Positions 617 to 64,000 of a DNA stretch of 64,000 nt are shown here, piece by piece (position 1 is the stretch's first letter; each line of letters starts with the position of its first letter). Under the pieces are notes generated by a model. It made no database searches. It had not been told where the DNA came from and saw only the letters and a list, made by a program, of their open reading frames with translations. The position numbers and the translations under genes were made by a program. The stretch covers positions 817,560 to 881,559 of the forward strand of contig OZ244982.1 in assembly GCA_965223115.1 (NCBI GenBank), given 5' to 3'. Source of the stretch: Gammaproteobacteria bacterium. Lineage in GTDB: Bacteria > Pseudomonadota > Gammaproteobacteria > UBA4575.

Positions 617-1185
617 AGCTGTTCATCCTTTTGCATGAATGTATCTACTTTTTCCATTAACCATCCCCATGCTTCTTGTTCTCGCCAGCCAGATGTTTTT
701 TCATAGCCTATACGTAGATATTCGATTTCTTGGAGTATTTTGTCTTGTGGCAACATATGTAGACGACTGACCAAAATCGCAAGTTCAAGCACTGCAAACT
801 GTGCGCGATTATACCCATGAAAGGGTGCATGTGTGACTTCATTTGCAATTTTGCATAAGAATTTTGGGCGAACTTCATCCTCTACTTTATTAATTACCTC
901 TAACTCTGTGTGGGCTAAGCAATTTTCTAAGCGCATACCATCAATAATATCAGTTGGACATGTTGGCCAAACTAGATTTCCAGTTAAACAACCTGCATAT
1001 ACACGTACATCATCAGTATAATTCAAAGTTGCAGTCCCATCTCGCTCTACATTATCTAATGTAGCAGAGGGTTTGAAAGGAAGGATAATTAAGTACTCTT
1101 CATCTTCATGTATACCCATGGGTGCTATGTGTACAGTTTTATCCTCCTGTACTGTCGTGACGATGCATTCGCGTATAAATGGCAT
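613..1185 (-). CDS. DUF447-family protein, typically encoded in H4MPT/methanofuran cofactor gene clusters
   Basis: 190-aa ORF translationally coupled to the DHPS-like gene upstream and the MfnB-like gene downstream. Length and composition fit DUF447 (flavin-reductase-like fold). Family assignment is from memory only. Confidence 0.4.
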   Translation of the reverse strand: MPFIRECIVTTVQEDKTVHIAPMGIHEDEEYLIILPFKPSATLDNVERDGTATLNYTDDVRVYAGCLTGNLVWPTCPTDIIDGMRLENCLAHTELEVINKVEDEVRPKFLCKIANEVTHAPFHGYNRAQFAVLELAILVSRLHMLPQDKILQEIEYLRIGYEKTSGWREQEAWGWLMEKVDTFMQKDEQL

Positions 1186-14587: not shown

Positions 14588-14591
14588 TGTA

Positions 14592-16250
14592 TTAATTTAG
14601 TTTGCATGGATGAATTTGAGTCTTACTACCAATGCATTCTTCCATTTCATCATTGCTGATTTTGAAATTATCAAATGCAATAGTTTGGTAGTCATCAAAA
14701 TATTTCTTTAAAGGTTTTTCGATAGCTCGATCAAACTCAGGTTTTACAACATGAGTTATACCTTGAACAGTTTTTATTACTGACCCATCTTTAACAATTT
14801 GCACACCATTTTTAAATACCATATAAGGCTTAGCAAACATCTGTTCTATATCATTTTGTTTGTGATAAACGACGATATTTGCGACTGCATTGTCACCTAG
14901 ATGGCCATGATCATTCAATCCTAAAATTTTAGCAGGGGCAGCACGTGTCATAATTGCAATTTCATATAGAGAATATTCGCGTTGCATGGAAGCCAAGTTA
15001 GACATCTTTTGTGCTTCAGGATGTATAATATTAAAAGCATCATTTCTAAACGAGCGATTCATTAATAATTTTATTAAATGAGGATAACTAGTAAAAGGGG
15101 CGCCGTTAGGGTGATCAGTAGTTAAAAAGATACGCCAGGGGTCATTTACTTGTAGGAAAATTTCTAAGCCGATGGCCCATTGCAAGGCATTAACAAAGCT
15201 TTTGTCACGGTACTTAAAGGGCATAACTCCACAACCTGCATCACATTCAATGTCCATAATAGTCCATTTCTTTGGGTGTGCATGGTCATGACCGAAGTAT
15301 TGCATCATGGTATCTCCAGATGTTGTCATGGTTTGACCAAACATAATTTGGCCAACATCTGCAGATACGTTGTTTTGTTTATTAATAGCTTCTGCAATCT
15401 CACATGCTGCGGAGGAGAATTTTCTATCGCCTTCTGCTCCATAGCTATGAAATTGAATATGGGTTAAATGAACAGGAAGGCCTTGTGCAGCAGACATGGT
15501 TGCAAGTGTTGATTCGAAGTTACCAGGAATACCTAAATTACTTGCATGAACGTGCAGTGGGTGTGGTACACCAAGATCATGTATGGCTTTACTTAAGGTG
15601 GTAATTATTTGTCGCGGTGTTACACCAATTGGGCCTGTTTCGTCAACATCAAGACGGCGTTGGTTATATTTAAATGCGTGGATTCCACCAGCATTAACTA
15701 CTTTTATTCCGATACATTGAGATGCGTCTAGTGTCCATGCTACGTAGTCATTAATCGCAGCTTGATTTGCACCTTGAGTTAGCATTCTCAACAAAAAGTC
15801 ATCATTGCCTAATAATGCGTAGCCCCCTTTGTCAATCATAGGAGTATCGGCCATTTCCATATGAGCTTGGCGAGCATTTACAGGTAATACAGCGGGCTCA
15901 AAGCATGTGGTATAGCCCATCTCGGCATAGCGATAACCTGTTGTATAAGTCGAAGGGGTAATGTGGCCACTTCCAGCACGGCATACATCTGTTTTATTAT
16001 CGATGTTGTTTTGGTGATCATCGAACATCATTGTGCGTGCAATATTTACTTTGCCGCCACCAATATGTGTATGCATATCGATTGCACCAGCCATGACAAT
16101 GCAATCATTAATATCTATTTCTTGGTCAATTTTTTTGTTTTCAGGTGCAGATAGGCTGATCTTGTCATCAACAATGTATATATCTTTTACTTGACCATCC
16201 ACTTCATGAACTGGGTCATATACCTTGCCGTTTGATAATTTAATAACCAT
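14592..16250 (-). CDS. fhcA: Formyltransferase/hydrolase complex subunit A (FwdA-like amidohydrolase)
   Basis: 552 aa. Metal-dependent amidohydrolase motifs (…AIDMHTHIGGGKVN…, …HVHASNLG…). Confidence 0.8.
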   Translation of the reverse strand: MVIKLSNGKVYDPVHEVDGQVKDIYIVDDKISLSAPENKKIDQEIDINDCIVMAGAIDMHTHIGGGKVNIARTMMFDDHQNNIDNKTDVCRAGSGHITPSTYTTGYRYAEMGYTTCFEPAVLPVNARQAHMEMADTPMIDKGGYALLGNDDFLLRMLTQGANQAAINDYVAWTLDASQCIGIKVVNAGGIHAFKYNQRRLDVDETGPIGVTPRQIITTLSKAIHDLGVPHPLHVHASNLGIPGNFESTLATMSAAQGLPVHLTHIQFHSYGAEGDRKFSSAACEIAEAINKQNNVSADVGQIMFGQTMTTSGDTMMQYFGHDHAHPKKWTIMDIECDAGCGVMPFKYRDKSFVNALQWAIGLEIFLQVNDPWRIFLTTDHPNGAPFTSYPHLIKLLMNRSFRNDAFNIIHPEAQKMSNLASMQREYSLYEIAIMTRAAPAKILGLNDHGHLGDNAVANIVVYHKQNDIEQMFAKPYMVFKNGVQIVKDGSVIKTVQGITHVVKPEFDRAIEKPLKKYFDDYQTIAFDNFKISNDEMEECIGSKTQIHPCKLN

Positions 16251-16258
16251 GATTGAGT

Positions 16259-17521
16259 TTAAAGGTTTTCTGTAAGTTGCTTGATGACTTCATTTGCTGC
16301 AGGAAGATCACTAGCACGTATGGCTTTTAAAGGTAAAGTGGCAACATTATCTGTGCGACACGCAAGTCCACGGTGATCTATACCTGGTACACCTGTAGGA
16401 ATGTAAACTTGAACATCTGAATTGCATTTCATGTTTGGATGCCCAATTACGATAGTAGGCACAGACGTTTCAGGGGGTAGGTCGCTGGAGTTATAAGTAG
16501 CTATCCATAGTAGTGCATCTGCTTCATTATTTTGTAGCATTGCCATTCCGTCGAATAAATTTGGATTATGGTTGGGTGCCCCATTCATAAATGCAATTGG
16601 TAAAGGTATGCCCATTTGCCATGTCGCAATTTGGTTGGCTGTAATTTCAGCTTTTGAACCACCTAATGTAAGTCCAACAACACGATTCTTTACCATGAGT
16701 CTTTTTATTAGTTGCGTAAGTGTCTGAATAGTTTGTTCTGCAGTTGCTTGGTTAAACTCCCCTGGGCTCCATAAAAAAGTTGTATATTGGCTGTTAGTTA
16801 TAATCTCGCATAATTGCAATAATGCTTGAATAGCATAAGTATTTTTATTAGAAATTTTATTAGGTGAAGCTATTATTCCATGGAGTTTTTGTATAATTGA
16901 TTCTAGAGTAGGTTCGTCAAAATTAAGAAATGTAATATCTTCGTACATAGATTGAATAGATTTGTCAGCATCATTTGCTACATCCAATACAAAAATATTT
17001 TTCTTTGTTGAGGTATCGCCATTCAATGACTGCGCTGGCGATAGTATTCGTTTATATAAGCGTGGGAAGTTTTCAAGTATTCCAGATCCAATTATTACAA
17101 CACAGTCTGCGCGATTACGGATTTCTGCTAAAGTTGTTTTTACTTCACCATGCCTTTGCATGACGGCATTATTAGTGCGCAATCTTGCGCCATTTGCATG
17201 ATCAATAACTCCGCCAATTTTTTCTGCTAATGCAATCGCATTTCTGCAGGTTTGCACATCCCCAATCAAACCGCTGATAAGAGGCTGTTTTGCTGAGGCT
17301 AAAATTTCACATGCCTTTTGTAGTGCATCTTTTTGAGTTGCAGTAGCACCCTTAACGAAAGGTGATGGGGCCTTGTTGTCTTCAAGTGAGGCGTCTTCAA
17401 AGTGGTGTTTACATTTTGCTGGCATTTCCGGATTCAGCTGTACAAAAAGATCATTTGTTTCAACCTCTAAATCGTCACAAAGTAAGCCACAATGTGTGCA
17501 TGTAACTGAATCAAATTGCAT
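16259..17521 (-). CDS. fhcB: Formyltransferase/hydrolase complex subunit B (FwdB-like, molybdopterin-oxidoreductase fold)
   Basis: 420 aa. N-terminal Cys cluster (MQFDSVTCTHCGLLCDDLEV) as in FwdB/FhcB. Confidence 0.75.
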   Translation of the reverse strand: MQFDSVTCTHCGLLCDDLEVETNDLFVQLNPEMPAKCKHHFEDASLEDNKAPSPFVKGATATQKDALQKACEILASAKQPLISGLIGDVQTCRNAIALAEKIGGVIDHANGARLRTNNAVMQRHGEVKTTLAEIRNRADCVVIIGSGILENFPRLYKRILSPAQSLNGDTSTKKNIFVLDVANDADKSIQSMYEDITFLNFDEPTLESIIQKLHGIIASPNKISNKNTYAIQALLQLCEIITNSQYTTFLWSPGEFNQATAEQTIQTLTQLIKRLMVKNRVVGLTLGGSKAEITANQIATWQMGIPLPIAFMNGAPNHNPNLFDGMAMLQNNEADALLWIATYNSSDLPPETSVPTIVIGHPNMKCNSDVQVYIPTGVPGIDHRGLACRTDNVATLPLKAIRASDLPAANEVIKQLTENL

Positions 17522-29750: not shown

Positions 29751-30446
29751 CTATTTGAAGTTGCGTTCAATTATTGTTATTAGTTTTTCGTTTAGCTTAT
29801 TTCTTGATTTATCAATATTTGTACTAAATCTAATTTGGCTCTCTATGGCATCATCGAAATATGCATTCTTTTTTAATTCACGCAATCTATCAGAAATATA
29901 ATTACTAACTTGCTCATTGGCTGATGCTACATCTTCAACCATTTTTGAATACCCATCGATTAGAGAAATAATATCTTCTGCATCTTTACTTCCTAATATG
30001 TCACCCTTACCACGGTCGCCAAACGATTCAATCTTTGTAGCTAACAAATAAGTAGGACTAATTACTTTTATTTTTATTCCATCAATTTCAAGCGCACGCG
30101 CGTGCTCGGTAGCTTCTTTGAACCATTTATTTTTAAAGCCGAGTACACTTTCTTCAGTCGGCATAAAATCAACAGGAGTACCATTAAAAACGTAGCGGCA
30201 TATTGGAGCATCTTCTGATTGATCGTGCTTAAAACCTAATGCTTCAACTGTTTCAGAAAATTTATAAAATTCTGATTTTGTTGTTACTTGTATTACTACA
30301 TCAACATCTCTTGTTGGCCGTGGCCTATCATCATCATTTATATATAGTGATACGATCGCACCGCCGACAAACATTAGATCATCTAGCAAAGATTCAAGTG
30401 CCTTTGCTACTTTCAATAGTGAAATAGTATTAGGGTTATTCAACAC
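29751..30446 (-). CDS. Pol-beta-superfamily nucleotidyltransferase (AbiEii / DUF1814-like candidate toxin)
   Basis: 231 aa. hG[GS]-x(n)-DhD signature (…FVGGAIVSLYINDDDRPRPTRDVDVVIQV…). Its start overlaps the stop of the upstream 188-aa gene by 11 nt. Confidence 0.5.
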   Translation of the reverse strand: MLNNPNTISLLKVAKALESLLDDLMFVGGAIVSLYINDDDRPRPTRDVDVVIQVTTKSEFYKFSETVEALGFKHDQSEDAPICRYVFNGTPVDFMPTEESVLGFKNKWFKEATEHARALEIDGIKIKVISPTYLLATKIESFGDRGKGDILGSKDAEDIISLIDGYSKMVEDVASANEQVSNYISDRLRELKKNAYFDDAIESQIRFSTNIDKSRNKLNEKLITIIERNFK

Positions 30447-31002
30447 CTAACTTTTCTTTGATAGCTTGTGCGCCAACTTCGCGTACTCTAACATCGCCGA
30501 CTCTTTGTGAGTCGAGTAAAGCTAACATTTCGTATAGTTCTGGATCTTCTTTGGCAGCTTCAGGTGCGAGTTCATGAATCGGATCACATGAATAACCTTC
30601 AACACCTTCATCGTCAGGCCAAACCCAATGTAGCTGATCGCTAGGTGCTAGTTGCTCATCAAATAGGCCAATAGCATCAGCCGTTGGCATACCCCTGACT
30701 TTTGCTCTACTTGCACCTGCTGGAAATGCGTACTTAGCACCATGAATCATGAACTCAGCCAATGCGCGCCGATTCACTTTTAAATCGCCCTTGTCACGTT
30801 TGCCTTTATTTCCAGATAGTAGGGATGCAGACTTGGCGCGCTCGACAGCATATTTCACAGCACTGGGAGGCATGCCCCCAAGTGATTCACCTAATGACTG
30901 GAATGAATAGTTGTCATCAAGTACAGCTAATTTCATCGCTACAAGTAAGTCTTGTGGCTTGAGTGCATCACTATTTTTCATGGCTATTTCCTTAATGTTC
31001 AA
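30436..31002 (-). CDS. Hypothetical protein, candidate cognate partner (antitoxin or regulator) of the nucleotidyltransferase
   Basis: 188 aa, translationally coupled (11-nt overlap) to the nucleotidyltransferase gene. Lysine-rich central segment. No motif recognised. Confidence 0.35.
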   Translation of the reverse strand: MNIKEIAMKNSDALKPQDLLVAMKLAVLDDNYSFQSLGESLGGMPPSAVKYAVERAKSASLLSGNKGKRDKGDLKVNRRALAEFMIHGAKYAFPAGASRAKVRGMPTADAIGLFDEQLAPSDQLHWVWPDDEGVEGYSCDPIHELAPEAAKEDPELYEMLALLDSQRVGDVRVREVGAQAIKEKLGVE

Positions 31003-51639: not shown

Positions 51640-52176
51640 TTACTTTGAGTTATTGTTTAGTTGCCGTTGTTTGCGTAGCTTTCTACTCCTCCAAAATATA
51701 ACTATGTAAAGCCGCCAAAGTACTCGTGCGGATATAAAACCAATTAACCCAGACAGAGTTCCCATAAACAAGCACCCCATAAGAAAAGGTTGCCATCTCT
51801 CGCGTAACTCTGTAAATAACCAGTTTAGACTTAGCTCAAAATCAAAAGGTCCAGGATAGACATTAGTGAGCCAAGTGCCTACTTTATAGGCAAGAAAAAA
51901 CAGTGGGGGCATCGTTATAGGGTTGGTGATCCATACTAATGCTACTGAGATTGGTAGATTGCAGCGAAATATAATCGCAAGTCCTGCTGCCAGTAGCATT
52001 TGAAACGGAATGGGTATGAATGCGCAAAATAGACCTATTGCGCAGGCTACCGATACCGACCTGCGATTCAAGTGCCATAAATTTTTATCATGAAGGAGTT
52101 CTCCAAAAATTCCTAAGGATTTTTCTTTTTGGATTTTTTGGCTAGGAATGAACTGCTTTAGGAATTTTCGTGGCAT
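51640..52176 (-). CDS. DUF2062-family membrane protein
   Basis: 178 aa, three or four TM helices. This family is frequently adjacent to comEC. Confidence 0.55.
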   Translation of the reverse strand: MPRKFLKQFIPSQKIQKEKSLGIFGELLHDKNLWHLNRRSVSVACAIGLFCAFIPIPFQMLLAAGLAIIFRCNLPISVALVWITNPITMPPLFFLAYKVGTWLTNVYPGPFDFELSLNWLFTELRERWQPFLMGCLFMGTLSGLIGFISARVLWRLYIVIFWRSRKLRKQRQLNNNSK

Positions 52177-52226: not shown

Positions 52227-54530
52227 GTGATCAGGTTTTCATTAGCTTTTTTATTTGGAATTCTCATTCTAACAACGTTTCGAGATTTACCACACTGGTT
52301 GTGGGCGGTGTGCGTGATTCCGGCGGTATGTTTTGCTATCAAGTTTCCACGTTACATTGTATTGCTAGGCATTATTATAGGTTTTCTATGGGCGCTTGGT
52401 CATGCTTACTTGAGGCTTTATCCTGAACTGGATCGTTCTCTAGAAGGTGTCGATTTATATGTACAAGGCCTGATTATTTCTATACCTGCTATTCAAGATC
52501 GCAGTATGCGCTTTGAACTCAAAGTAACGAGTGCGACACAAATCGATAATAATGAAAATATCACAATCCCTAATAAGGTTCGCTTGAACTGGTACGGGGA
52601 TTTCCCAGTATTACAAATTGGAGAACAATGGCATCTTCGTGTGCGTTTAAAACGCCCATGGGGTTTTGCTAATCCAGGTGGTTTTGACTATGAGAAATGG
52701 TTATTTGAGCAGGGAATTCGTGCCACAGGATATGTCAGAAACTCGGAGCTAAACCAACGCATAGAAGTTACAAAACTAAGTCAATTATCTCATTTTGTTA
52801 GGGCATGGCTTAATAAGCAGTTTCAGGATGTAGAGCTAGATAAAAATACAGCAGTAATTAAAGCTCTCGTGTTGGGTGAAAAAAATGAAATGAGTGAAAA
52901 AAGGTGGGAGATATTAACTGCAACAGGTACAAATCACTTATTAGCTATTTCAGGATTACACATTAGCTTGGTTTCTGGTTTTGTTTTTTTTATTGTTTTA
53001 CAGTTATGGAAATTAAGCGAAACATTATGTCTGCTTATTGCTGCTCAACGGATAGCGGCAATAGCAGGAATAATAGCGAGTGTGCTGTATGCAATGCTTG
53101 CCGGCTTTGCCATACCTACTCAGCGTGCCGTGGTAATGGTAAGTGTAGTATTACTTGCCATTTATTACTCTAAAACGATACGGCCATGGAATATATTAGC
53201 GATTGCATTGCTCGCTGTCCTTGTTTGGGATCCATTCTCAGTATTATCCCCAGGTTTTTGGTTATCTTTCCTCGCCGTAGCTATAATTTTCTATACGATT
53301 GCGGAAAAACAAGCAAAGCAATCTTGGATTTATCATATAGGTCGGATGCAATTGGTTTTAGCAGTAGGTTTATTGCCTTTAACATTAGTATTATTCCAAC
53401 AAGCTGCTTTGATTGCGCCCATTGCAAATATGTTTGCAGTGCCTTGGGTTAGTTTTGTAGTTGTACCTCTAGTGCTGCTAGGTTCGGGATTACTAATACT
53501 TAGTCAAACTTTATCGGCATGGGTTTTACAAATCGCAGGCTATTCTGTAGATGTCTTTTGGGCAGTCCTTACTTTTTTGTACAAACTTCCAAATGCAAAT
53601 TGGTTTCATGCAGCTCCTGGGTGGGTGCTTATACCAGCTGGTATTGCAATAATATTGCTATTGGCGCCAAGGGGTTGGCCTGCAAAGTTGCTGTGTATTC
53701 CGCTTTTAAGTCCATTAGTATTTGCGCCTGCATCAGAACTGCTAGATGAAGATGAACTTAGAGTAGCTGTTCTTGATGTAGGGCAGGGCTTGGCTGTTGT
53801 TTTAGAACATGATCAATATGTGCTGGTATATGATACAGGACCTAAGTTTAGTAAGAGCTTCAATGCGGGTGAGTCCGTGGTCTTACCCTATTTATTAGAG
53901 CGTGGTATAGATGAAATCGATATGCTAGTTGTAAGCCATGCTGACAAGGATCACGCTGGTGGAGCACAAAGTTTACTATCTAATATTGATGTGAAACGCA
54001 TGGTTACAAGTACACCTTCTAACTATAAGCATGCATTTATGAGCGAATGCAAAGCCGGGATCCGTTGGGAATGGAAAGGTGTGCATTATCAGTTTTTGCA
54101 CCCTGGCAAGGATATGCATGGGCTATCAAAAAATAATGGTTCATGTGTGCTATTGGTACGCCATAGGCAGGGCAGTGTACTGATTACTGGTGATATTGAG
54201 CGACCAATCGAGCGATTTTTAGTAGAAAATAAACCTGATTTGCTTGATACTGATGTCTTAATCGTGCCTCATCATGGAAGCAACTCGTCTTCAACAGCAG
54301 CATTTATACAAACTACATCTCCAGAGTATGCAATATTTACTACGGGCTATCGAAACCCATATGGATTCCCGAATAAAAAAGTAATTGCTCGTTATGAAGA
54401 ATTTGGTAGTGCATTAATGAATACGGCTTCTGAGGGTATGATTACATTTGCATTTTTAAATCAAAATGGCTTGAAATTACATACAGGTTATCGTGAAAAG
54501 CGACGTAGATTTTGGCATTCTAGATTTTAA
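52227..54530 (+). CDS. comEC: DNA internalization-related competence protein ComEC/Rec2
   Basis: 767 aa. N-terminal DUF4131-like region, polytopic competence domain, C-terminal MBL domain (…VVSHADKDHAGG…). Confidence 0.85.
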   Translation: MIRFSLAFLFGILILTTFRDLPHWLWAVCVIPAVCFAIKFPRYIVLLGIIIGFLWALGHAYLRLYPELDRSLEGVDLYVQGLIISIPAIQDRSMRFELKVTSATQIDNNENITIPNKVRLNWYGDFPVLQIGEQWHLRVRLKRPWGFANPGGFDYEKWLFEQGIRATGYVRNSELNQRIEVTKLSQLSHFVRAWLNKQFQDVELDKNTAVIKALVLGEKNEMSEKRWEILTATGTNHLLAISGLHISLVSGFVFFIVLQLWKLSETLCLLIAAQRIAAIAGIIASVLYAMLAGFAIPTQRAVVMVSVVLLAIYYSKTIRPWNILAIALLAVLVWDPFSVLSPGFWLSFLAVAIIFYTIAEKQAKQSWIYHIGRMQLVLAVGLLPLTLVLFQQAALIAPIANMFAVPWVSFVVVPLVLLGSGLLILSQTLSAWVLQIAGYSVDVFWAVLTFLYKLPNANWFHAAPGWVLIPAGIAIILLLAPRGWPAKLLCIPLLSPLVFAPASELLDEDELRVAVLDVGQGLAVVLEHDQYVLVYDTGPKFSKSFNAGESVVLPYLLERGIDEIDMLVVSHADKDHAGGAQSLLSNIDVKRMVTSTPSNYKHAFMSECKAGIRWEWKGVHYQFLHPGKDMHGLSKNNGSCVLLVRHRQGSVLITGDIERPIERFLVENKPDLLDTDVLIVPHHGSNSSSTAAFIQTTSPEYAIFTTGYRNPYGFPNKKVIARYEEFGSALMNTASEGMITFAFLNQNGLKLHTGYREKRRRFWHSRF

Positions 54531-54565
54531 ATAGGATAAGGATATACATTAAGGAGTTCATGTAA

Positions 54566-55180
54566 GTGTATGAAATTATGAAGGCAGGTGGCTGGTTAAT
54601 GCTGCCTATCATTGCATGTTCCATTGTTGCCTTGGCAATCGTATTGGAAAGATTCTGGACACTACAGAAAGAGCGGGTCACGCCTAAATACCTAGCAGCA
54701 AGGATTTGGCAATGGAGTAAAGATGGCAAATTAGATGAAAATCGCATTATGCAAATACGAAAAAGTTCTCCATTGGGTCGAGTACTGGCGTCAGGCCTAA
54801 TTAACCAAAATTATGATAGAGAAGTAATGAAAGAATCCATTGAAGAGACGGGTAGGCATGTTGCGTATGAATTACAACGTTTTCTCAATACACTGGGCAC
54901 TATAGCGGCTATCTCTCCTTTGCTAGGGCTTCTTGGCACCGTAATTGGAATGATTCAAGTTTTTAGTGTTATCACAAGTGTTGGCGTGGGGGATCCAGGA
55001 GAGTTAGCAGGAGGAATATCTAAGGCACTGATCACTACAGCTGCTGGATTGTGTGTAGCGATACCTAGCTTAATTTTTGTGCGTTACTTTAGGAGAAGAG
55101 TAGATGGTTTGGTAGTTGGAATGGAGGAAGAAGCCATAAAACTGGTTGAAGTAATGCATGGACAGCGCAGAGTCGAGTAA
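54566..55180 (+). CDS. exbB: MotA/TolQ/ExbB proton-channel family protein
   Basis: 204 aa, three TM helices, conserved …LGLLGTVIGMI… motif. Confidence 0.8.
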   Translation: MYEIMKAGGWLMLPIIACSIVALAIVLERFWTLQKERVTPKYLAARIWQWSKDGKLDENRIMQIRKSSPLGRVLASGLINQNYDREVMKESIEETGRHVAYELQRFLNTLGTIAAISPLLGLLGTVIGMIQVFSVITSVGVGDPGELAGGISKALITTAAGLCVAIPSLIFVRYFRRRVDGLVVGMEEEAIKLVEVMHGQRRVE

Positions 55181-55182
55181 CG

Positions 55183-55596
55183 ATGAATTTTAACCGTGCT
55201 GAGAGCGATCGTCTTGAGGTAAATCTCACACCACTTATTGATGTGGTGTTTTTGCTACTTATTTTTTTTATGGTAACAACAACTTTTAATCAACAAGCTG
55301 AACTGCGAGTAGATCTACCAGAAGCTAGTTCTAAAGAGCAATCCATAGATGTTGAACCAATTGAAATTACTATTGATAAATCAGGAGTCTATTACATAAA
55401 TGGAGTGGGCCTTGCGAATAATGAGGCAAAGACACTGATGCAGTCTTTGCAAAAGATTGCAAACGAAGATATGGAAAGAGGCGTAATCATCAGTGCAGAC
55501 GCTGCAACCCCACATCAAGCTGTAATTACTGCTATGGATACAGTGGCCAGATTAGGCATTTCTAAAGTATCCATCGCAACTTCAAAACCTAAGTAA
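55183..55596 (+). CDS. exbD: Biopolymer transport protein ExbD/TolR
   Basis: 137 aa. …NLTPLIDVVFLLLIFFMVTT… single TM helix typical of ExbD/TolR. Confidence 0.8.
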   Translation: MNFNRAESDRLEVNLTPLIDVVFLLLIFFMVTTTFNQQAELRVDLPEASSKEQSIDVEPIEITIDKSGVYYINGVGLANNEAKTLMQSLQKIANEDMERGVIISADAATPHQAVITAMDTVARLGISKVSIATSKPK

Positions 55597-55610
55597 TCAT
55601 AAGCTTTAAA

Positions 55611-57383
55611 ATGGCCACACAAGCCTATAAACAAAGTAGCTGGCAAACGTATCGGCGTTTATTAAGCTATACCTTATCAAAGTGGCAGTATCTTTTGCTC
55701 GGTTCGGTTGCACTATTAATATTCTCGGGGCTAGATGCGCTTATTGCATACTTATTAGGACCATTTATAGACAATACCTATGTAGCAAAAAATTACGAAG
55801 AAATTAAGTGGATTCCCATAATTCTACTCGTAGTAATTATTTTTCGTGGCATCGTAAATTTTATTGGTACTTATCTGATTGGCTATATTGGTGCATATGT
55901 AATTAAGGAACTTCGTCAGGAAATGTTTGATCGAGTGCAATATTTCCCAACTAGTTTTTTTGATCAACAAGCTACAGGCGAACTACTGTCTAAGTTTTCG
56001 TATGATGTAGAACGAGTAATCGGTGCTGCAGTAAAAAGTTTGAGAATTTTGGTAGAGGATACAGCTAAGATCATATTTCTGTTAGCTGTAATGTTTATTA
56101 ACAACTGGAAACTTACTTTATTGTTTTTGATTGTGGCCCCTTTAATTGCAGTAGTTGTTGGCTATACAAGTAAATTATTTAGAAAATTTAGTGAACATAT
56201 GCAGAAATCAGTAGGTAAGATTACTCATATTGTTGAAGAAAGTATTACCGGGCATCGAATTGTAAAAATTTTTGGCGGTCAGCGATATGAAATCGATAAA
56301 TTTGAATATGCAAATGAAAAATACCGACGTAATAACCTTAGAAAAGTAATAACCAAAGCAGCAAGTACACCTATAATTCAAATGTTGGTAGGTTTTGTAT
56401 TAGTCGCTGTATTGGCCATAGCGGCAAGACCGGAAATAGCATCAGAAGAATCTGCAGGAGGTTTTGTTAGTTTCATTGTCGCAATGGTATGGATATTAAC
56501 CCCAGCGAGAAAACTAACTTTGGTAAATGAAATACTACAGACAGGCATTGCTGCAGGTCAAAGTGTGTTTGAATTAATTGACACAGAAAAAGAATATGAG
56601 TCATCTACCCAAGCTATTAAGAATTGTAAAGGTAAGATTGAATATCAAAATGTAACATTTAAATATGCTACAAGAAATGATCAGGCATTAAATAATGTTA
56701 GTTTATTGATAGAACCAGGAGAAACAGTCGCATTTGTAGGTAAATCTGGAAGTGGTAAAAGTACAATCGTTAATTTATTACCAAGGTTTTATACAGTTGA
56801 ACAAGGTTCTATATTGATAGATGGAACCGATATTAATGACATTAGTTTACAGTCTTTGCGAGCACAAATGTCTATCGTTAGCCAAGAAGTTGTGCTGTTT
56901 AATGATACCATTGCTAATAATATTGCTTATGCTAGAGATCTAGATGCAAATGATCCTCTTATTTTAAAAGTAGCTAAAGCTGCACGGGTTTTAGAGTTTA
57001 CAGATAAGTTACCAGAAAAATTAAATACGTTAGTAGGCGAGAATGGAGTATTGCTTTCAGGGGGGCAAAGACAACGCATTGCTATTGCAAGGGCATTGTT
57101 AAAAGATGCACCCATCTTAATTTTAGATGAGGCTACTTCTTCATTAGATACCGAGTCTGAAAAATATATTCAGATAGCTTTAGACATACTTCAAGAAAAT
57201 AGAACAACGTTGGTAATAGCACACCGGCTTTCAACGATAGAAAAGGCGGATAGAATCGTTGTTATGGAAAAAGGTAAAATTATAGAAACTGGTAAACATC
57301 ATGAGTTATTGCAGCGTAATAGTGCATATGCAAATTTATATAAAATGCAAATTCATCGACACGACGATGTGGTAAATGCTTAA
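55611..57383 (+). CDS. msbA: Lipid A export ATP-binding/permease protein MsbA
   Basis: 590 aa. Six-TM ABC exporter domain plus NBD ([34 protein letters not shown]). Confidence 0.9.
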   Translation: MATQAYKQSSWQTYRRLLSYTLSKWQYLLLGSVALLIFSGLDALIAYLLGPFIDNTYVAKNYEEIKWIPIILLVVIIFRGIVNFIGTYLIGYIGAYVIKELRQEMFDRVQYFPTSFFDQQATGELLSKFSYDVERVIGAAVKSLRILVEDTAKIIFLLAVMFINNWKLTLLFLIVAPLIAVVVGYTSKLFRKFSEHMQKSVGKITHIVEESITGHRIVKIFGGQRYEIDKFEYANEKYRRNNLRKVITKAASTPIIQMLVGFVLVAVLAIAARPEIASEESAGGFVSFIVAMVWILTPARKLTLVNEILQTGIAAGQSVFELIDTEKEYESSTQAIKNCKGKIEYQNVTFKYATRNDQALNNVSLLIEPGETVAFVGKSGSGKSTIVNLLPRFYTVEQGSILIDGTDINDISLQSLRAQMSIVSQEVVLFNDTIANNIAYARDLDANDPLILKVAKAARVLEFTDKLPEKLNTLVGENGVLLSGGQRQRIAIARALLKDAPILILDEATSSLDTESEKYIQIALDILQENRTTLVIAHRLSTIEKADRIVVMEKGKIIETGKHHELLQRNSAYANLYKMQIHRHDDVVNA

Positions 57384-57411
57384 CTAGAATACTTTATTAG
57401 CATAAATTGAT

Positions 57412-58398
57412 TTGAATATAGATTACGAAAATATTTGGCGTTCAAAAAACTTACTGTCTACCATACTTTTACCATTATCATGGATATTTAGAACAGCTGT
57501 TGTTTTAAGAAGATCCTACTATCGCATAAGAAACTCAAATAATTCATATCTACCCGTATTTGTTATTGTTGTTGGTAATCTCACGGTAGGAGGTACAGGG
57601 AAGACTCCATTTGTAATTTGGCTTGCAAAATATTGTAAGAACAAAGGATTAAATGTGGGCATAGTGACTCGAGGTTATAAGCGAGAAAGTAAACAACATA
57701 TGATAGAAGTACAGCCACAAACTACGCCATCTGAGGTGGGTGATGAAGCTTTGTTGCTAGCATTAAAAACGTCTTGTCCAGTAATTGTTTCCGCAAACCG
57801 TAGACAAGCAGTAGAAACATTAGTGAGTAAATATCAGGTAGAAGTGGTTTTGTCTGATGATGGTTTACAGCATTACAATATGCCTAGAGATAAGGAAATT
57901 GTTATTGTAGACACTGAACAATTATTTGGTAATGGTAGATGTTTGCCAGCAGGACCTTTAAGAGAGCCTGTTAAACGTATAAAATCTTGTGATTTAATTA
58001 TTTATAGTAATTGTGAAAATTCTTCAAATGCAGCATTTAAAATGCAAATCAATGATGCTGTTTCGCTTTCGTCAGATATCGTACGAAAATCAGTAAAAGA
58101 TTTCACCAACTTCACGGTGCATGCAGTTGCAGGTATTGGTAATCCAAGTCGTTTTTTTAATGCATTGCGAGGCGCAGGTATTCAGGTCATAGAACATAGA
58201 TTCCCTGATCATTACACTTATCAAGAGAACGATTTGGAATTTAATGATGCACATCCTATTCTAATGACTGAGAAAGATGCAGTAAAATGTAAGAAATTCA
58301 CGCATAAAGATATTTGGTATGTGCCAGTTTCGCTACTACCTAACGATTTGCTAAGACAAAGTATTTCAACAATTATTGAAGGAATTCAGCATGGATAA
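57412..58398 (+). CDS. lpxK: Tetraacyldisaccharide 4'-kinase
   Basis: 328 aa with …[13 protein letters not shown]… P-loop. Conserved msbA-lpxK order. Confidence 0.85.
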
Positions 58399-58585
58399 TC
58401 AACTACTTGATATTTTGGTCTGTCCCGTAACCAAAGGGCCGTTAAAATATGACAAAGAACGGCAAGAATTGATTTCTACCTCGGCTCGTCTTGCATATCC
58501 AATTCGAGACGGAATACCTGTTATGCTAGAAGAAGAAGCACGGACGATAGACGAAGAAGAGTATGATAAATACAAAGCGATGTAA
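58391..58585 (+). CDS. ycaR: Trm112/YcaR-family small protein (DUF343)
   Basis: [29 protein letters not shown]…[16 protein letters not shown]. Classic lpxK-ycaR-kdsB arrangement. The ORF track's upstream start at 58376 would overlap lpxK by 23 nt, whereas the ATG at 58391 overlaps it by 8 nt. Confidence 0.7.
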
Positions 58586-58628
58586 GTAAAATTCAGAGAA
58601 TTAAAAATTCTAATTAGTTGATCGTTTT

Positions 58629-59363
58629 GTGGAATTCAAAGTTGTCATCCCAGCTCGCTATGCATCTACACGATTACCTGGTAAAGCACTTTTGCCGGTT
58701 AATGGTAAGCCTATTATCCAGTTTGTGTATGAAAATGCTCTAAACAGCGGTGCACAGCAAGTCATTGTGGCTACGGATGACCAGCGTATTAAAGAAGCTG
58801 CTGAGAAATTTGATGCTGAAGTTTGTTTGACTTCGAGTCAGCATCTATCAGGTACAGATAGAATTGCTGAAGTGGTGCAAATATATTCTTGGCCTGATGG
58901 GGTAGTGATTGTAAATGTGCAAGGTGATGAACCTTTAATGCCTTCAGGAAATATACGTCAAGTCGCAGAAAATCTAATTACACATGATAATATAAGCATG
59001 TCCACTTTATGTGCAAATATAAGTGAAGAAAATTACAAAAATAAAAATGTTGTTAAAGTTAATTATGATAAAAATAATATCGCAATAAATTTTAGTAGAG
59101 ATATACAAACTTTTGATAATGAGTCTATTCAAGGTAAAAAAATATATCGGCATTTGGGAATATACTCATATCATGTTGGATTTTTAAATCTATTTACTCA
59201 ACTTCCACAATCAGTTTCTGAAAAACAAGAGTCACTAGAACAATTGCGAGCATTAGATAATGACTATTTAATCTATGTTGACTTGTGTAAAGAAGAAACA
59301 GGCATTGGTGTGGATACACAAGAGGATTATAAGATTTTGTTAAACACGTTAATAAATCGTTGA
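58629..59363 (+). CDS. kdsB: 3-deoxy-manno-octulosonate cytidylyltransferase (CMP-KDO synthetase)
   Basis: 244 aa. …VVIPARYASTRLPGKAL… N-terminus and …NVQGDEPL… motif. Confidence 0.9.
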   Translation: MEFKVVIPARYASTRLPGKALLPVNGKPIIQFVYENALNSGAQQVIVATDDQRIKEAAEKFDAEVCLTSSQHLSGTDRIAEVVQIYSWPDGVVIVNVQGDEPLMPSGNIRQVAENLITHDNISMSTLCANISEENYKNKNVVKVNYDKNNIAINFSRDIQTFDNESIQGKKIYRHLGIYSYHVGFLNLFTQLPQSVSEKQESLEQLRALDNDYLIYVDLCKEETGIGVDTQEDYKILLNTLINR

Positions 59364-59369
59364 TATGCT

Positions 59370-59963
59370 ATGCAATGGAAGATGAAACGACGTGTTCGTG
59401 CTTATGATGGTCATTTTAAAGTTGATCAATGCATAATACAGCATGAACTTTTTGCTGGTGGGAATAGTGGAGACTTAAAGCGTGAGCGTGTATCCAGACA
59501 AAATTCTGTTGCTGTACTACCCTATGATCCGCATAGAGACGAGGTGGTTTTAATCGAACAATTCCGTGTAGGACCTTTAGAGCAAGATGCGAATCCATGG
59601 TTGGTAGAAGTTATTGCGGGCTTGGTAGAGGAGGGTGAAAGTCTAGAAGAAGTCGCTTATCGTGAAGCTATAGAAGAAGCGGATTGTAAAATTGAAAAGC
59701 TATATCATGTTTCTTCTTTTTACCCATCTCCAGGTGGATTTGCAGAGTTATCACATGTTTATATTGGAAAAACTAATACATCAGGCCTTGGCGGTATTCA
59801 TGGAGCAGTACACGAAGGGGAAGATATACGTGTTTGCGTAGTTTCATCACAACAAGCAGTTGATATGTTAAGTGAAGGAGTAATCCGATCAGCAATACCT
59901 ATGATTGCGCTATATTGTTTTAAAGATCTAAAAGTGGAATTGCAAAAGAAGTGGTTAAGCTAG
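59370..59963 (+). CDS. nudF: Nudix hydrolase, ADP-ribose pyrophosphatase type
   Basis: 197 aa. Nudix box GLVEEGESLEEVAYREAIEEADC. Confidence 0.7.
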   Translation: MQWKMKRRVRAYDGHFKVDQCIIQHELFAGGNSGDLKRERVSRQNSVAVLPYDPHRDEVVLIEQFRVGPLEQDANPWLVEVIAGLVEEGESLEEVAYREAIEEADCKIEKLYHVSSFYPSPGGFAELSHVYIGKTNTSGLGGIHGAVHEGEDIRVCVVSSQQAVDMLSEGVIRSAIPMIALYCFKDLKVELQKKWLS

Positions 59964-60087: not shown

Positions 60088-60939
60088 TCATTTTTCAACA
60101 TCAACTTTGACAAAGATAGAGCTTATTTTGTCTGATTCAGATCGAGAAGTACTTAAAATACCTTTGTCTTTAGATTTTGCATCAGTATCCACACCACCAA
60201 TTTGCACCCATTGACCTAATTTTGCAGTGATCATGGTATCGGCTTCTTGAACATCGATAGTGCCATGATGCTCATTGCTGACAGATCGGTAGTGTGGCTG
60301 CACTTGTAATGAAACATTGCCGTTTCCTGTTAAATGTGGGGTTACATAAAAACCGCTAGTAATGTCTTGATAGTCGACACTGTCGTAAACAGATATACCA
60401 CGGCGGTGGCGGATAATGGTGCGATGCTCAAAGGGACGGATTTCACCGGCAGCAATGAAGGCTTTACCACCTTCGATAACCCGTACCATGTGCTCGGTAT
60501 CACTTTCTTGCTCGCGTTCATTTTTGTTAACTCGAATGCGTGTACCTTCATCTCTAGGTGGGCTGTCTCCAATAACAACGCGAGTGTCGTCACCGATTTC
60601 ATAATTGCCAGAATAATTAAAGTCTGTTGATTCAGATCCTAAATCAACATTATTTCGCACCGTAATAATTAAATTACGTGGTGCTTTATCCATGACTTTA
60701 AGCAAGCGAGTAATTTCCTCTAGGGTGTTAGTATCTGTACGTAAAAATAGCTGAAACCCTGATCCTGTAATTGCGTCGTTTGGCTTTAATAAGGGTTTAA
60801 TGATTGGAATCATTTCTTCTGCAGGTCGATTGCTCAGCTGAATAATTTTTAAGGGGTCATTTTGATCTGCACTAACCGCAGATATAATTACGGTACAAAA
60901 TAAGATAATTACTGTGTGCTGTATTATTCTTAAATACAT
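60088..60939 (-). CDS. Secreted protein with a possible secretin-N-like segment and a short C-terminal secretin-like patch
   Basis: 283 aa. Signal peptide (MYLRIIQHTVIILFCTVIISAVSA). …LKIIQLSNRPAEEMIPIIKPLL…FQLFLRTDTNTLEEITRLLKVMDKAPRNLIITVRN… resembles the Secretin_N short domain. C-terminus …GQWVQIGGVDTD…SSIFVKVDV resembles the secretin-domain core and tail. No database or structure check was possible. Confidence 0.4.
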   Translation of the reverse strand: MYLRIIQHTVIILFCTVIISAVSADQNDPLKIIQLSNRPAEEMIPIIKPLLKPNDAITGSGFQLFLRTDTNTLEEITRLLKVMDKAPRNLIITVRNNVDLGSESTDFNYSGNYEIGDDTRVVIGDSPPRDEGTRIRVNKNEREQESDTEHMVRVIEGGKAFIAAGEIRPFEHRTIIRHRRGISVYDSVDYQDITSGFYVTPHLTGNGNVSLQVQPHYRSVSNEHHGTIDVQEADTMITAKLGQWVQIGGVDTDAKSKDKGILSTSRSESDKISSIFVKVDVEK

Positions 60940-61457
60940 AATCTTCTTATAGCGGTATCTTGAGCACTAAGCTCCCATATATTTGTAAAAGTTTCCGTCA
61001 ACTCTTTAGACTTATCAGCATCATTAAAGTTTACTTCTGCATCATATAAATCAGATTTAAGGTTGTATATATAGCCAACATTATCTGCAACTAGTAGGCT
61101 TTGGTTAAACTGAGAATAGTCATTACATATAGTACGAATTTCGATTTTTGATGAAATACGTTGACTTATGTCTAATAAACGGTGACCATTTTTAATCATT
61201 TGGGCTGTATCATGAACGAGTATTCTTATGCTTGCATGTCTGGTACGACGCACTAGTTGAGTTGCGGCTTCAGCGATATTCTCGTTATTGAAAATAGTAG
61301 GGTCCAAATAGCGGCTTATAATGATAATTTGATCTTGTGCAGAATATAATAATTTTGTAATTGCATCCTTATTTTGAGCGCGACTGTCTATATTTATGCG
61401 TTCATTAGTGACGCCAAGAATGAAATTTTTAAAAAAATTATCTTTAGAAATCCCCAC
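60930..61457 (-). CDS. PLD-like (Nuc-like) fold protein lacking the catalytic HKD motif, a probable pseudo-enzyme
   Basis: 175 aa. …AQDQIIIISRYLDPTIFNNENIAEAATQLVRRTRHASIRILVHD… follows the PLD-family pattern (A+xSIxIxxYxx…IxxALxxAxxRGVxVRILxD). The position of HxKx4D reads NQSLLVAD (H→N, K→S). The stop overlaps the start of the downstream secreted-protein gene by 10 nt. Confidence 0.35.
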   Translation of the reverse strand: MGISKDNFFKNFILGVTNERINIDSRAQNKDAITKLLYSAQDQIIIISRYLDPTIFNNENIAEAATQLVRRTRHASIRILVHDTAQMIKNGHRLLDISQRISSKIEIRTICNDYSQFNQSLLVADNVGYIYNLKSDLYDAEVNFNDADKSKELTETFTNIWELSAQDTAIRRLCI

Positions 61458-61730
61458 GTTTCATGCCTTTTAAATTAATTTGTTTAGCTATAGTGAATTA
61501 TAAACTACTAGCTTTAGGTTCTCATTTGCAATAATGCCAATTTTGGGAACTAAATGTGGCACTACATAGCCTATATGTCGTGGTTGAGGCCATAAGCTCG
61601 GTTTTTGGGCGATTATCGCGTATAGTGCTGCGGTTTTAGCGCTTGAAAAATACTAAAAGTTTAGTACCATTTTGCCGCCAAATAAATTGAGATGGATATA
61701 TTTTACCTGACACTGAAAGCAGTGTAAGCC

Positions 61731-62453
61731 ATGATAGAAATAGATCACTTAAATAAAAAGTTCGGACATTTAGTTGCTGTTGAAGATATTTCCTTCTCTG
61801 TTAAGCCAGGGGAGGTGCTTGGCTTTTTAGGCCCAAACGGTGCTGGTAAGTCTACGACAATGAAAATGATCACAGGGTTTTTGACACCTAGTTCTGGTGA
61901 AATCAATGTATGTGGTTATAACGTCGGTGAGCGGCCTATTGATGTTAAAAAAAGAATAGGCTATTTACCTGAAGGGGCACCTAGCTATGGTGAAATGACT
62001 CCGCTTCAGTATCTTGAATTTATTGCTGAAGTGCGTGAACTTTCTGGGCAGAAAAAAACAGAGCGTAAAAAAGAAGTTATAGAGCGTCTGCATCTGGATA
62101 AGGTGTTAAACCAGTCAATAGAAACTTTATCAAAAGGATTCAAGAGAAGAGTAGGCCTTGCGCAAGCTATTTTACATGACCCTGAAGTATTGATTTTAGA
62201 TGAGCCTACTGATGGTTTAGATCCTAACCAAAAGCATGAAGTTAGAGAATTGATTAAAAGCATCGCAGTCGAAAAAGTGATTGTCATTTCTACCCATATA
62301 CTTGAAGAAGTAGATGCGATATGTACACGCGCAATTATCATTGCAAACGGTAAAATTCTTGCCGATGATACGCCAGATGGGCTGCGAAGTAAGTCTTCAA
62401 GTAATAAATTAGATGATGTATTCCGTGAGATTACGCAAGCGAAGCTATCATGA
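61731..62453 (+). CDS. ABC transporter ATP-binding protein (ABC-2/GldA-like)
   Basis: 240 aa. GPNGAGKSTT Walker A, LSKGFKRRVGLAQAIL signature, ILDEPTDGLD Walker B. Confidence 0.85.
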   Translation: MIEIDHLNKKFGHLVAVEDISFSVKPGEVLGFLGPNGAGKSTTMKMITGFLTPSSGEINVCGYNVGERPIDVKKRIGYLPEGAPSYGEMTPLQYLEFIAEVRELSGQKKTERKKEVIERLHLDKVLNQSIETLSKGFKRRVGLAQAILHDPEVLILDEPTDGLDPNQKHEVRELIKSIAVEKVIVISTHILEEVDAICTRAIIIANGKILADDTPDGLRSKSSSNKLDDVFREITQAKLS

Positions 62454-63184
62454 AAAATATTATAACGATATTTAAACGTGAATTAAGCAGCTACTTTGCA
62501 ACGCCAGTTGCTTATGTGTTTATTGTGATATTTTTGATAATGAGCGGTGCGTTGACGTTTTATTTAGGTAATTTTTATGAAAGGGGTCAAGCAGATTTAG
62601 TTCCTTTTTTCCAGTTTCATCCTTGGCTATATTTATTTTTAGTACCAGCAATAGCCATGCGTCTATGGGCTGAAGAACGCAAATCCGGCAGTATTGAATT
62701 ATTAATGACTTTGCCTATCTCAGTAGGGCAGTCTGTAATTGGTAAGTTTTTTGCGGCTTGGATTTTTATAGGAATTGCTTTGTTTTTAACTTTTCCAATC
62801 TGGATTACTGTAAATTATTTAGGTAACCCAGATAATGGAGTTATTTTTGCTGCTTATTTAGGGAGCTTTTTAATGGCTGGCGGGTTCTTGGCAATCGGTG
62901 CTTGTATTTCTGCTATGACAAAAAATCAAGTAATTGCATTTATCATCACAGTAGTCATTTGTTTTATTTTTCTATTAGCGGGCTCATCGTTGGTTTTAAA
63001 CTTCTTTAAAGCTTGGATTCCACAAAGTATTGTTGATGCAATTTCATCATTAAGCTTTTTAACCCACTATGCATCGATTGCAAAAGGTGTGATTGATTTA
63101 AGAGATGTTATCTATTTTGTAACATTAATTGGTTTTTGGTTATACGCTAATGCCTTAGTAGTGGAAATAAAGAAAGCGGACTAA
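62450..63184 (+). CDS. ABC-2 family transporter permease (GldF-like)
   Basis: 244 aa, six TM helices. Start overlaps the ATPase stop (ATGA). Confidence 0.7.
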   Translation: MKNIITIFKRELSSYFATPVAYVFIVIFLIMSGALTFYLGNFYERGQADLVPFFQFHPWLYLFLVPAIAMRLWAEERKSGSIELLMTLPISVGQSVIGKFFAAWIFIGIALFLTFPIWITVNYLGNPDNGVIFAAYLGSFLMAGGFLAIGACISAMTKNQVIAFIITVVICFIFLLAGSSLVLNFFKAWIPQSIVDAISSLSFLTHYASIAKGVIDLRDVIYFVTLIGFWLYANALVVEIKKAD

Positions 63185-63194
63185 CACTATAGCT

Positions 63195-64000
63195 ATGCAG
63201 AAAACTACATCAATAACGGTGATTGGGTTAATTATTCTTGCCATCTTGTTTTTAATTGTAAATATGGCAAGTAGTAAATTGTTTACCTCTATGCGTGCCG
63301 ACTTAACTCAAAATGAACTCTATACTCTAACTAAGGGCACACGCAATATAGTAGCAAGTATACAAGAGCCTGTTACTTTGTATTTATTTTACTCAGATAA
63401 AGCGAGTGAAGATGTTCCACAATTACGTACCTATGCAAACCGCGTAAAAGAACTTTTGCAAGAGTATGCACAACTATCAAATGGAAAGATTGCGTTAAAT
63501 ATTGTTGATCCAGTGCCATTTTCAGAAGAAGAAGATCAGGCCGCTGCATTTGGGTTGCAAGGTGTGCCGATTGGAAATAGTGGTGAAAATATTTATTTTG
63601 GCTTAGCTGCTAGTAATGCAGTAGGTGATACTGAAAAGATTGCTTTTTTTCAGCCTCAGCGAGAGCAGTTTCTTGAATATGATGTTTCAAAGTTAATTAA
63701 TAATTTAACTAACCCTAAAAAGCCGGTTATAGGAATCATCACACAACTTTCATTGTTTGGTGGGTTTGATATTGAAACCACGCAAATGACAAAAGCATGG
63801 GCCATCATTGCGCAGATGCGGCAATTATTTGAATTAAAACAGCTTGATATTACAGCTAAAGTAATAGATGAAGATATTGATATCTTAATGGTAGTGCACC
63901 CTAAAGACCTTAGTTTGCTTACAAAATATGCAATAGATCAGTTTGTAATGCGAGGTGGTAAGTTGTTATTGTTTGTTGATCCACATTCTGAAGTAGACAA
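63195..64000 (+). CDS. GldG-like ABC-transporter auxiliary component (partial, continues beyond the window)
   Basis: ORF from the ATG at 63195 (MQKTTSITVIGLIILAILFLIVN…), open to the window end. N-terminal TM helix followed by a periplasmic domain, typical partner of ABC-2 ATPase/permease pairs. Confidence 0.5.
   Translation, partial: MQKTTSITVIGLIILAILFLIVNMASSKLFTSMRADLTQNELYTLTKGTRNIVASIQEPVTLYLFYSDKASEDVPQLRTYANRVKELLQEYAQLSNGKIALNIVDPVPFSEEEDQAAAFGLQGVPIGNSGENIYFGLAASNAVGDTEKIAFFQPQREQFLEYDVSKLINNLTNPKKPVIGIITQLSLFGGFDIETTQMTKAWAIIAQMRQLFELKQLDITAKVIDEDIDILMVVHPKDLSLLTKYAIDQFVMRGGKLLLFVDPHSEVD

Follow-up and report, generated by a model that had tools for sequence, protein, structure and literature searches.

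A short secretin and a PLD-fold protein of the DUF7931 family encoded by overlapping genes in a gammaproteobacterium

To our knowledge, secretins have been described only as the outer-membrane part of large machines: type II and type III secretion systems (T2SS and T3SS), type IV pili (T4P), Tad pili and the export apparatus of filamentous phages. The pIV protein of phages f1/M13 (PDB ID 7ofh) comprises ~400 residues, carries an extra N0 domain for docking to phage pI/pXI, and its gene lies among phage assembly genes. The phospholipase D (PLD) fold, in turn, is adopted by Nuc and NucT (PDB IDs 1byr and 6ehi), which are exported proteins, and, minus the HKD motif, by the C-terminal domain of TrmB and by DUF1669 of FAM83, which bind ligands or proteins. 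Here we analyze a gene pair in a 64-kb stretch of a gammaproteobacterial contig (OZ244982.1, positions 817,560 to 881,559; this whole stretch is called the window), which codes for a 283-residue secretin, termed mini-secretin, and for a 175-residue PLD-fold protein of the family DUF7931. A literature search returned no paper on the function of DUF7931 or of the mini-secretin family and none describing short or orphan secretins, in agreement with a preliminary description of this DNA, which knew of no system of such composition. Both proteins belong to catalogued but uncharacterised families, and the mini-secretin is best described as a secretin stripped down to its core that stands apart from any machine.

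Comparison with these systems reveals likenesses in fold and differences in domain composition. The mature mini-secretin has only 259 residues, is devoid of the N0 domain found in pIV, and has no phage or assembly genes nearby. In contrast to GspD/XcpQ, PilQ, InvG and RcpA, it lacks N0/N1/N2 or AMIN domains, an S domain, a pilotin signal and a lipobox. Genes of T2SS, T4P, Tad, T3SS or filamentous phages are not found among the annotated neighbors in the window and in 113 further loci, for which no dedicated secretion-gene screen was run. The DUF7931 protein has the same size and fold as Nuc/NucT and shares their strand pattern (IRILVHD, IEIR, LLVAD and a C-terminal F...W helix), but it contains Asn-118 and Ser-120 in place of the catalytic His and Lys, neither being conserved family-wide, and it lacks a signal peptide. 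Its top structural matches include the TrmB/TrmBL2 C-terminal domain and FAM83, to which it has no detectable sequence relationship. TrmB carries an N-terminal winged-helix DNA-binding domain, whereas DUF7931 is either stand-alone or fused to a GNAT acetyltransferase.

Gene layout and architecture of the mini-secretin

Both open reading frames (ORFs) of the preliminary description are found on the minus strand (Table 1), and every sequence string quoted there could be located: IRILVHD (residues 77-83), NQSLLVAD (118-125) and F157...I160-W161 in the 175-residue protein, GQWVQIGGV (242-250) and SSIFVKVDV (272-280) in the 283-residue protein. The overlap between the stop of the first gene and the start of the second, noted there as well, amounts to 10 nucleotides (nt) and can be read directly, with ..TGT ATT TAA closing the DUF7931 gene and ATG TAT TTA opening the mini-secretin gene. 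As read from this geometry, the two genes form a two-gene operon with predicted translational coupling through the start/stop overlap. The Pfam scores given below and ~80-90 close homologues of the same length for each protein, from uncultured marine Gammaproteobacteria, identify both ORFs as real genes, not chance ORFs. The N terminus of the 175-residue protein, MGISKDNFF (MGISKDNFFKNF), is common to its homologues. Matches from a terminator scan of the window were not above chance, and Rfam and tRNA scans gave no match, so no riboswitch was detected in the 273-bp leader region.

Table 1. Positions of the gene pair, its domains and other features in the window
Feature	Position	Strand	Remarks
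DUF7931 gene, 175 aa	60930-61457	minus	GTG start, TAA stop at 60930-60932
Mini-secretin precursor gene, 283 aa	60088-60939	minus	ATG start
Overlap of DUF7931 stop and mini-secretin ATG, 10 nt	60930-60939	minus	reads ATGTATTTAA
Codons of N118-Q-S-L-L-V-A-D125	61083-61106	minus	site of the PLD HxK(x)4D motif
Predicted mini-secretin signal peptide, residues 1-24	60868-60939	minus	MYLRIIQHTVIILFCTVIISAVSA/DQ; signal peptidase I-like; helix 2-22 in model
Single Secretin_N/N3-like domain, residues ~28-85	60685-60858	minus	beta-alpha-beta-beta-alpha, directly after signal peptide
Secretin core, residues ~86-283	60091-60684	minus	from DSSP of model, Pfam and XcpQ alignment
Pfam Secretin match, residues 152-258	60166-60486	minus	Pfam scan
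Divergent intergenic region, pair versus ATP-binding cassette (ABC) transporter operon	61458-61730		273 bp
Candidate sigma-70-like promoter of the pair	61497-61525	minus	ATGAGA-17-TATAAT, 10/12 positions; count of such sites not above chance
comEC	52227-54530	plus	
comEC...nudF synteny	52227-59963	plus	
DUF2062 membrane protein	51640-52176	minus	
ABC transporter operon	61731-64000	plus	runs off window
fhcCDAB-like cluster	12874-17521	minus	
231-aa/188-aa ORF pair	29754-31002	minus	

The 283-residue protein matches the Pfam Secretin family (PF00263) with 37.6 bits (gathering score 27.5) and Secretin_N with a sub-threshold 17.4 bits, and these were the only two families returned by a Pfam scan at E ≤ 10. 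No NCBIfam model scored above its cut-off for either protein of the pair, the secretin models being far below theirs (for example 32.8 versus 351 bits for GspD). GspD (PDB ID 5wln) matches the mini-secretin in phmmer (E = 3.7e-4), as does the pIV family of PHROG (2.1e-8), and a residue alignment with XcpQ (5wln) brings out the motifs G..vP, vtP.i and dGq.v.iGG. With the AlphaFold model (predicted local distance difference test (pLDDT) 76.6, predicted template modeling score (pTM) 0.50) as query, all 40 Foldseek matches at E ≤ 1e-3 are secretins, led by InvG (5.6e-15) and followed by GspD, PilQ, pIV, BfpB and RcpA. The signal peptide, Secretin_N-like domain and core motifs of the preliminary description are supported by the Pfam matches, the model and the Foldseek matches. 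An identity as CpaB/RcpC or PilP, which would have spoken against that assignment, was discarded: neither gave a Pfam match, and the structural matches are secretins.

In the model, the signal helix (residues 2-22) is followed by an N domain (30-83) and by two long hairpins (89-155 and 245-281), between which lie two short inner ones (167-192 and 196-215) and then a polar loop of low confidence (216-234); the last strand of the second long hairpin (263-281) ends the chain. There is no helix after residue 83. The long outer hairpins and inner gate hairpins of the secretin fold are present, as is one ring-building domain of the Secretin_N/N3 type in front of them; when set against the published secretin structures, the order of elements in the model corresponds to a secretin core behind one such N3-type domain. 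N0, N1/N2 and AMIN domains are ruled out, since the N domain starting at residue ~28 leaves no residues for them, and an S domain is absent, the protein stopping at its last β-strand. In size, the mini-secretin is comparable to what has been resolved of pIV (230 residues) and of RcpA (244 residues), both among its best structural matches. The earlier remark that the protein is far too short for a full secretin holds for the N0-N2 and S domains, but not for the fold itself, as the whole core and one N domain are present. We find that the 283-residue protein is a complete but minimal secretin, lacking everything by which canonical secretins are linked to an inner-membrane machine or to a pilotin (N0-N2 domains, S domain, lipid anchor).

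A profile search of 1.84 billion cluster representatives (clustered at 50% identity) returned 4,673 matches at E ≤ 1e-3 and 1,095 at E ≤ 1e-30, which puts the family at a minimum of 1,095 clusters at the stricter threshold. Of 73 diverse members sharing 26-61% identity with the window protein, 70 have a Secretin match (E ≤ 1e-3) and 67 a Secretin_N match. Named sources include Thioalkalivibrio, Chromatiaceae, Pseudomonas alcaligenes and Halopseudomonas pelagia, and pipelines label the proteins as 'hypothetical', 'GspD/PulD (secretin)' or 'Secretin_N domain-containing protein'. By profile similarity, the mini-secretin is not a one-off but belongs to a very large uncharacterised family, of which PA2633 of Pseudomonas aeruginosa is very probably a member as well. 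With 283 residues it does not reach half the length of GspD or PilQ, and one could take it for a truncated remnant or pseudogene of a full secretin. The family data refute this, leaving it virtually no probability: there are more than 1,000 representatives, the best 150 matches are similar in length (220-372 residues) and nearly all align end to end, a hydrophobic signal-like N terminus leads directly into the N domain in 71 of the 73 diverse members (a lipobox-like motif occurs in two), and conservation runs through the last strand. Some members (P0008, P0018, P0065, P0075 and P0076) contain an insertion of 12-20 residues rich in Gly, Tyr, Ser and Arg (e.g. GGNSRYRDSYYGSNY) at alignment columns ~274-293, corresponding to loop 216-234 of the window protein.

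The DUF7931 protein

The 175-residue protein is assigned to DUF7931 (Pfam PF25559) with 130.9 bits (cut-off 27), its residues 27-173 covering profile positions 3-149 of 149. It has neither a signal peptide nor a hydrophobic N terminus. The preliminary description had proposed a PLD/Nuc fold, and the AlphaFold2 model (pLDDT 84.5, pTM 0.81) confirms it: each of the 50 top Foldseek matches in the PDB is a protein of this fold, among them the TrmBL2/TrmB C-terminal domain, NucT, Nuc, FAM83, vaccinia F13, PLD1-4 and Zucchini. The best matches are TrmBL2 (E = 5e-7) and FAM83 (4e-6). Superposition with Nuc (1byr) gives template modeling scores of 0.60/0.68 (root mean square deviation (r.m.s.d.) is 3.6 Å over 166 columns).

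At the site of the catalytic HxK(x)4D motif the protein reads N118-Q-S120-LLVA-D125, with Asn for His, Ser for Lys and the Asp retained. We assessed conservation in 30 domains filtered at <60% identity, stand-alone as well as fused, which were aligned with the stand-alone profile. The position equivalent to the catalytic His is variable (Asn in eight, Pro in five, Ser in three, Ala in three and His in only two domains), and that equivalent to Lys is never a Lys (Ala in 10, Ser in seven, others in the remainder). Because the sampled domains retain the His in two cases and the Lys in none, the catalytic motif is missing across the DUF7931 family, and the loss noticed earlier in the window protein extends to its relatives. 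The protein has a PLD fold but is not an HKD enzyme. Asp-125, Phe-157 and Trp-161 are invariant (30/30), and a set of further residues, Gly-91-His-92, Arg-100, Ser-103, Arg-108 and Arg-171, is kept in 25-28 of the domains (His-92 in 28, Ser-103 in 27, Arg-100 and Arg-108 in 25 each). We infer that DUF7931 is a non-catalytic binding or regulatory module located in the cytoplasm. A role as an anti-phage PLD nuclease in a defence system was dropped, neither protein of the pair matching a PADLOC model at E ≤ 0.01.

Recurrence of the pair and its possible role

In the clade of the window, the DUF7931 gene precedes the mini-secretin gene in all 17 loci (L001-L017), which represent one lineage and place the pair between an ABC transporter and nudF-kdsB-lpxK-msbA-comEC; tblastn suggests the start/stop overlap in at least seven of them. 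More distant mini-secretins (23-37% identity) likewise have DUF7931 upstream, in other surroundings. The pair was found in 16 lineage representatives (<60% identity), whose mini-secretins share 20-57% identity (median 30%), and overlapping start and stop codons are seen there too. Its order is purB-DUF7931-mini-secretin-mscS in L019, where 20 nt separate the two genes, and JmjC-GNAT-DUF7931-mini-secretin in L022, where they overlap by 4 nt. The same 4-nt overlap is found in P. alcaligenes (L027), with the order purB-JmjC-GNAT-DUF7931-mini-secretin-aceA. L018 and H. pelagia (L025/L026) have the same arrangement with GNAT fused to DUF7931; the pair overlaps by 4 nt in L018 and L025.

The loci L027 and L025, with their order purB-JmjC-GNAT-DUF7931-aceA and a Secretin_N protein of 269-272 residues before aceA, probably correspond to PA2631-PA2633 of Pseudomonas aeruginosa. 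From the PAO1 gene order, the UniProt name and the purB...aceA synteny of these two loci, we take PA2631-PA2633 to be GNAT, DUF7931 and mini-secretin. On the same grounds PA2633 is a probable orthologue of the mini-secretin, which, standing beside PA2631 and PA2632, would make its function testable in a standard genetic system. The lineage of the window differs from the P. alcaligenes and H. pelagia loci in that it has only DUF7931 and the mini-secretin, which lie in different chromosomal surroundings, and its mini-secretin shares 25-30% identity with theirs. PA2633 (Q9I0K5, 'Secretin_N domain-containing protein') has been quantified in a P. aeruginosa surface-shaving proteome (PMC8959810) and is otherwise cited as a landmark for the small RNA PA2633.1/SrbA (PMC5542712, PMC5870498). 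PA2632 is mentioned once, for a mutation found in a single resistant isolate (PMC12960592).

Either family can also be found without the other, and the link between them is facultative. We inspected 80 metagenome loci containing a mini-secretin motif, a sample that was obtained in a scan with a 25-sequence subset, is biased to carriers of SGRLGEW and was ranked against P0206: DUF7931 lies upstream in seven of them and is absent from 56 others whose upstream DNA extends over 450 bp or more. In example clusters, Pfam identifies RmuC, M90 peptidase, patatin, MltB, UbiB and a DinG-like helicase as neighbors of unpaired mini-secretins. A rough, midpoint-rooted neighbor-joining tree groups the unpaired mini-secretins mostly in one large clade and distributes the paired ones over many deep branches, a pattern that fits an old pairing lost in one lineage, with a rooting that is not reliable and a sample that is motif-biased. 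In L071, a 195-residue ORF (466-1050, plus strand) without Pfam match overlaps an unpaired mini-secretin gene by 1 nt, its last base being the first of that gene. It was rejected as a cryptic DUF7931 (hhalign probability 0.1%) and could be spurious or encode another kind of upstream partner.

Across bacteria, the primary partner of DUF7931 is a small GNAT acetyltransferase, which is often fused to it: we located 26 clusters of GNAT::DUF7931 fusions and separate adjoining GNAT genes in L022, L027, L030 and L109. The best NCBIfam matches of the GNAT proteins are PRK10314 and RimI-like models, all far below cut-off. A JmjC/RoxA-like oxygenase (JmjC_2 + WHD_ROXA) almost always precedes GNAT or GNAT::DUF7931, downstream of purB (L018, L022, L025-L028, L064, L109, L110, L112 and L113), often with overlapping start and stop codons. 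No GNAT, JmjC or purB gene is present in the 64-kb window. In L111, a 147-residue ORF without Pfam match (5972-6415, plus strand) takes the place of the mini-secretin and overlaps the GNAT::DUF7931 stop by 4 nt. Its resemblance to the mini-secretin N terminus (signal peptide and first strand) is weak (hhalign probability 32%), and the ORF could represent a remnant or some other partner.

Our preferred explanation, to which we attach about an even chance, is that the operon co-expresses an autonomous mini-secretin ring and a cytoplasmic DUF7931 module. The mini-secretin would be exported via Sec and would self-assemble at the outer membrane into a gated, homo-oligomeric ring, acting as an autonomous conduit that needs no dedicated inner-membrane machine. 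DUF7931 would have a binding or regulatory part in a function centred on GNAT, its expression being tied to that of the mini-secretin by translational coupling. The two genes appear co-transcribed and translationally coupled in many Gammaproteobacteria, and therefore both proteins are probably used under the same conditions; any flow of material between them would be a further step. Several observations weigh against this explanation. The monomer model of the mini-secretin is only moderately confident, and its superpositions have high r.m.s.d. values (5-13 Å). Unlike canonical secretins, whose amphipathic helical loop we take to lie at the position equivalent to residues 216-234, the model contains no such loop, and these residues are polar and have the lowest confidence. 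No substrate or inner-membrane partner can be named for the mini-secretin. As a cytoplasmic and an outer-membrane protein cannot touch, their coupling must be indirect. Pairing is not obligate either, given the 56 unpaired loci and the lack of a mini-secretin in four of five further GNAT::DUF7931 contexts (L028/29, L110, L112 and L113). Finally, the conserved polar residues of DUF7931 leave room for an unrecognised activity.

Alternatively, the two genes would be neighbors without a shared function, the mini-secretin being an independent envelope protein, DUF7931 belonging to a GNAT (perhaps also JmjC) module by purB, and their adjacency and start/stop overlap simply inherited. The unpaired mini-secretins lie beside unrelated housekeeping genes, the four GNAT::DUF7931 contexts do without a mini-secretin, and the signal peptide on one protein and its lack on the other assign the two to different compartments. 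We nevertheless consider this reading somewhat doubtful: the pair persists in 16 lineages whose mini-secretins have a median identity of 30%, its chromosomal surroundings are of three kinds or more (ABC/nudF, purB-aceA and purB-mscS), the stop/start overlap turns up again in distant members, and the clade of the window kept the pair though the window has neither GNAT nor JmjC. It appears unlikely to us that DUF7931 is an active enzyme with a non-HKD site formed by Gly-His-92, Arg-100, Ser-103 and Arg-108, whose small-molecule product, possibly made together with GNAT, leaves via the mini-secretin. The retention of these residues and the fusion to an acetyltransferase, which suggests one pathway, are in its favor, but the canonical nucleophile His and the Lys are missing, the best structural neighbors include the non-catalytic TrmB/TrmBL2 C-terminal domain and FAM83, and no inner-membrane exporter is linked to the pair across different lineages. 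A role in DNA uptake had been suggested on the basis of comEC, which ends 5.56 kb from the pair (5.5 kb in the preliminary description). DUF7931 would then be a Nuc-like DNA-binding module and the mini-secretin a small outer-membrane DNA channel working with ComEC; Nuc-type PLD proteins do bind nucleic acids, the secretins HofQ and PilQ take up DNA, and there is a weak NCBIfam HofQ match (E = 0.03, far below cut-off). This idea found no support and is very improbable. Only in the clade of the window does comEC stand close to the pair, as part of an ordinary comEC-exbB-exbD-msbA-lpxK-ycaR-kdsB-nudF housekeeping synteny, and none of the 96 loci beyond this clade has a comEC match. The links of DUF7931, a cytoplasmic protein, are with GNAT instead of com or pil genes, and no pilus or competence genes were seen beside sampled family members.

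If the preferred explanation of an autonomous ring is extended to the whole family, mini-secretins would be a distinct and widespread class of self-sufficient outer-membrane channels, co-expressed in many Gammaproteobacteria, Pseudomonas among them, with a cytoplasmic GNAT/pseudo-PLD module that makes, senses or marks their cargo. We regard this extension as possible rather than probable; if true, such channels would constitute a new minimal envelope-export or permeability system. A family of more than 1,000 clusters at 50% identity in any case makes one ask what role a secretin can play alone, and by what means it is inserted and gated when pilotin, S domain and N0 docking are all absent. DUF7931 adds a bacterial case of a PLD fold turned non-catalytic, repeatedly fused to GNAT.

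Other features of the window

The ABC transporter operon divergent from the pair encodes an ATPase of 240 residues, an ABC-2-type permease of 244 residues and, as third gene, a GldG-like auxiliary protein (DUF7088 + ABC_transp_aux). Wherever the loci of the clade extend far enough, the ATPase and permease genes adjoin the pair (ATPase in 17/17, permease in 16/17, including the 43%-identical L017); this arrangement of the two genes is not found in other lineages. On the far side of the housekeeping synteny, the gene for a DUF2062 membrane protein is divergent from comEC.

Elsewhere in the window, a nucleotidyltransferase of the AbiEii/DUF2204 type (231 residues, weak Pfam matches) overlaps the end of a 188-residue ORF without Pfam match, and the two may form a type IV toxin-antitoxin or abortive-infection pair. 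An fhcCDAB-like cluster encodes the formyltransferase/hydrolase complex of the tetrahydromethanopterin (H4MPT) C1 pathway, with Pfam matches to GXGXG, FTR + FTR_C and amidohydrolase and an additional 420-residue ORF without Pfam match. Together with a GC content of 37%, this cluster points to a methylotroph-like marine gammaproteobacterium.

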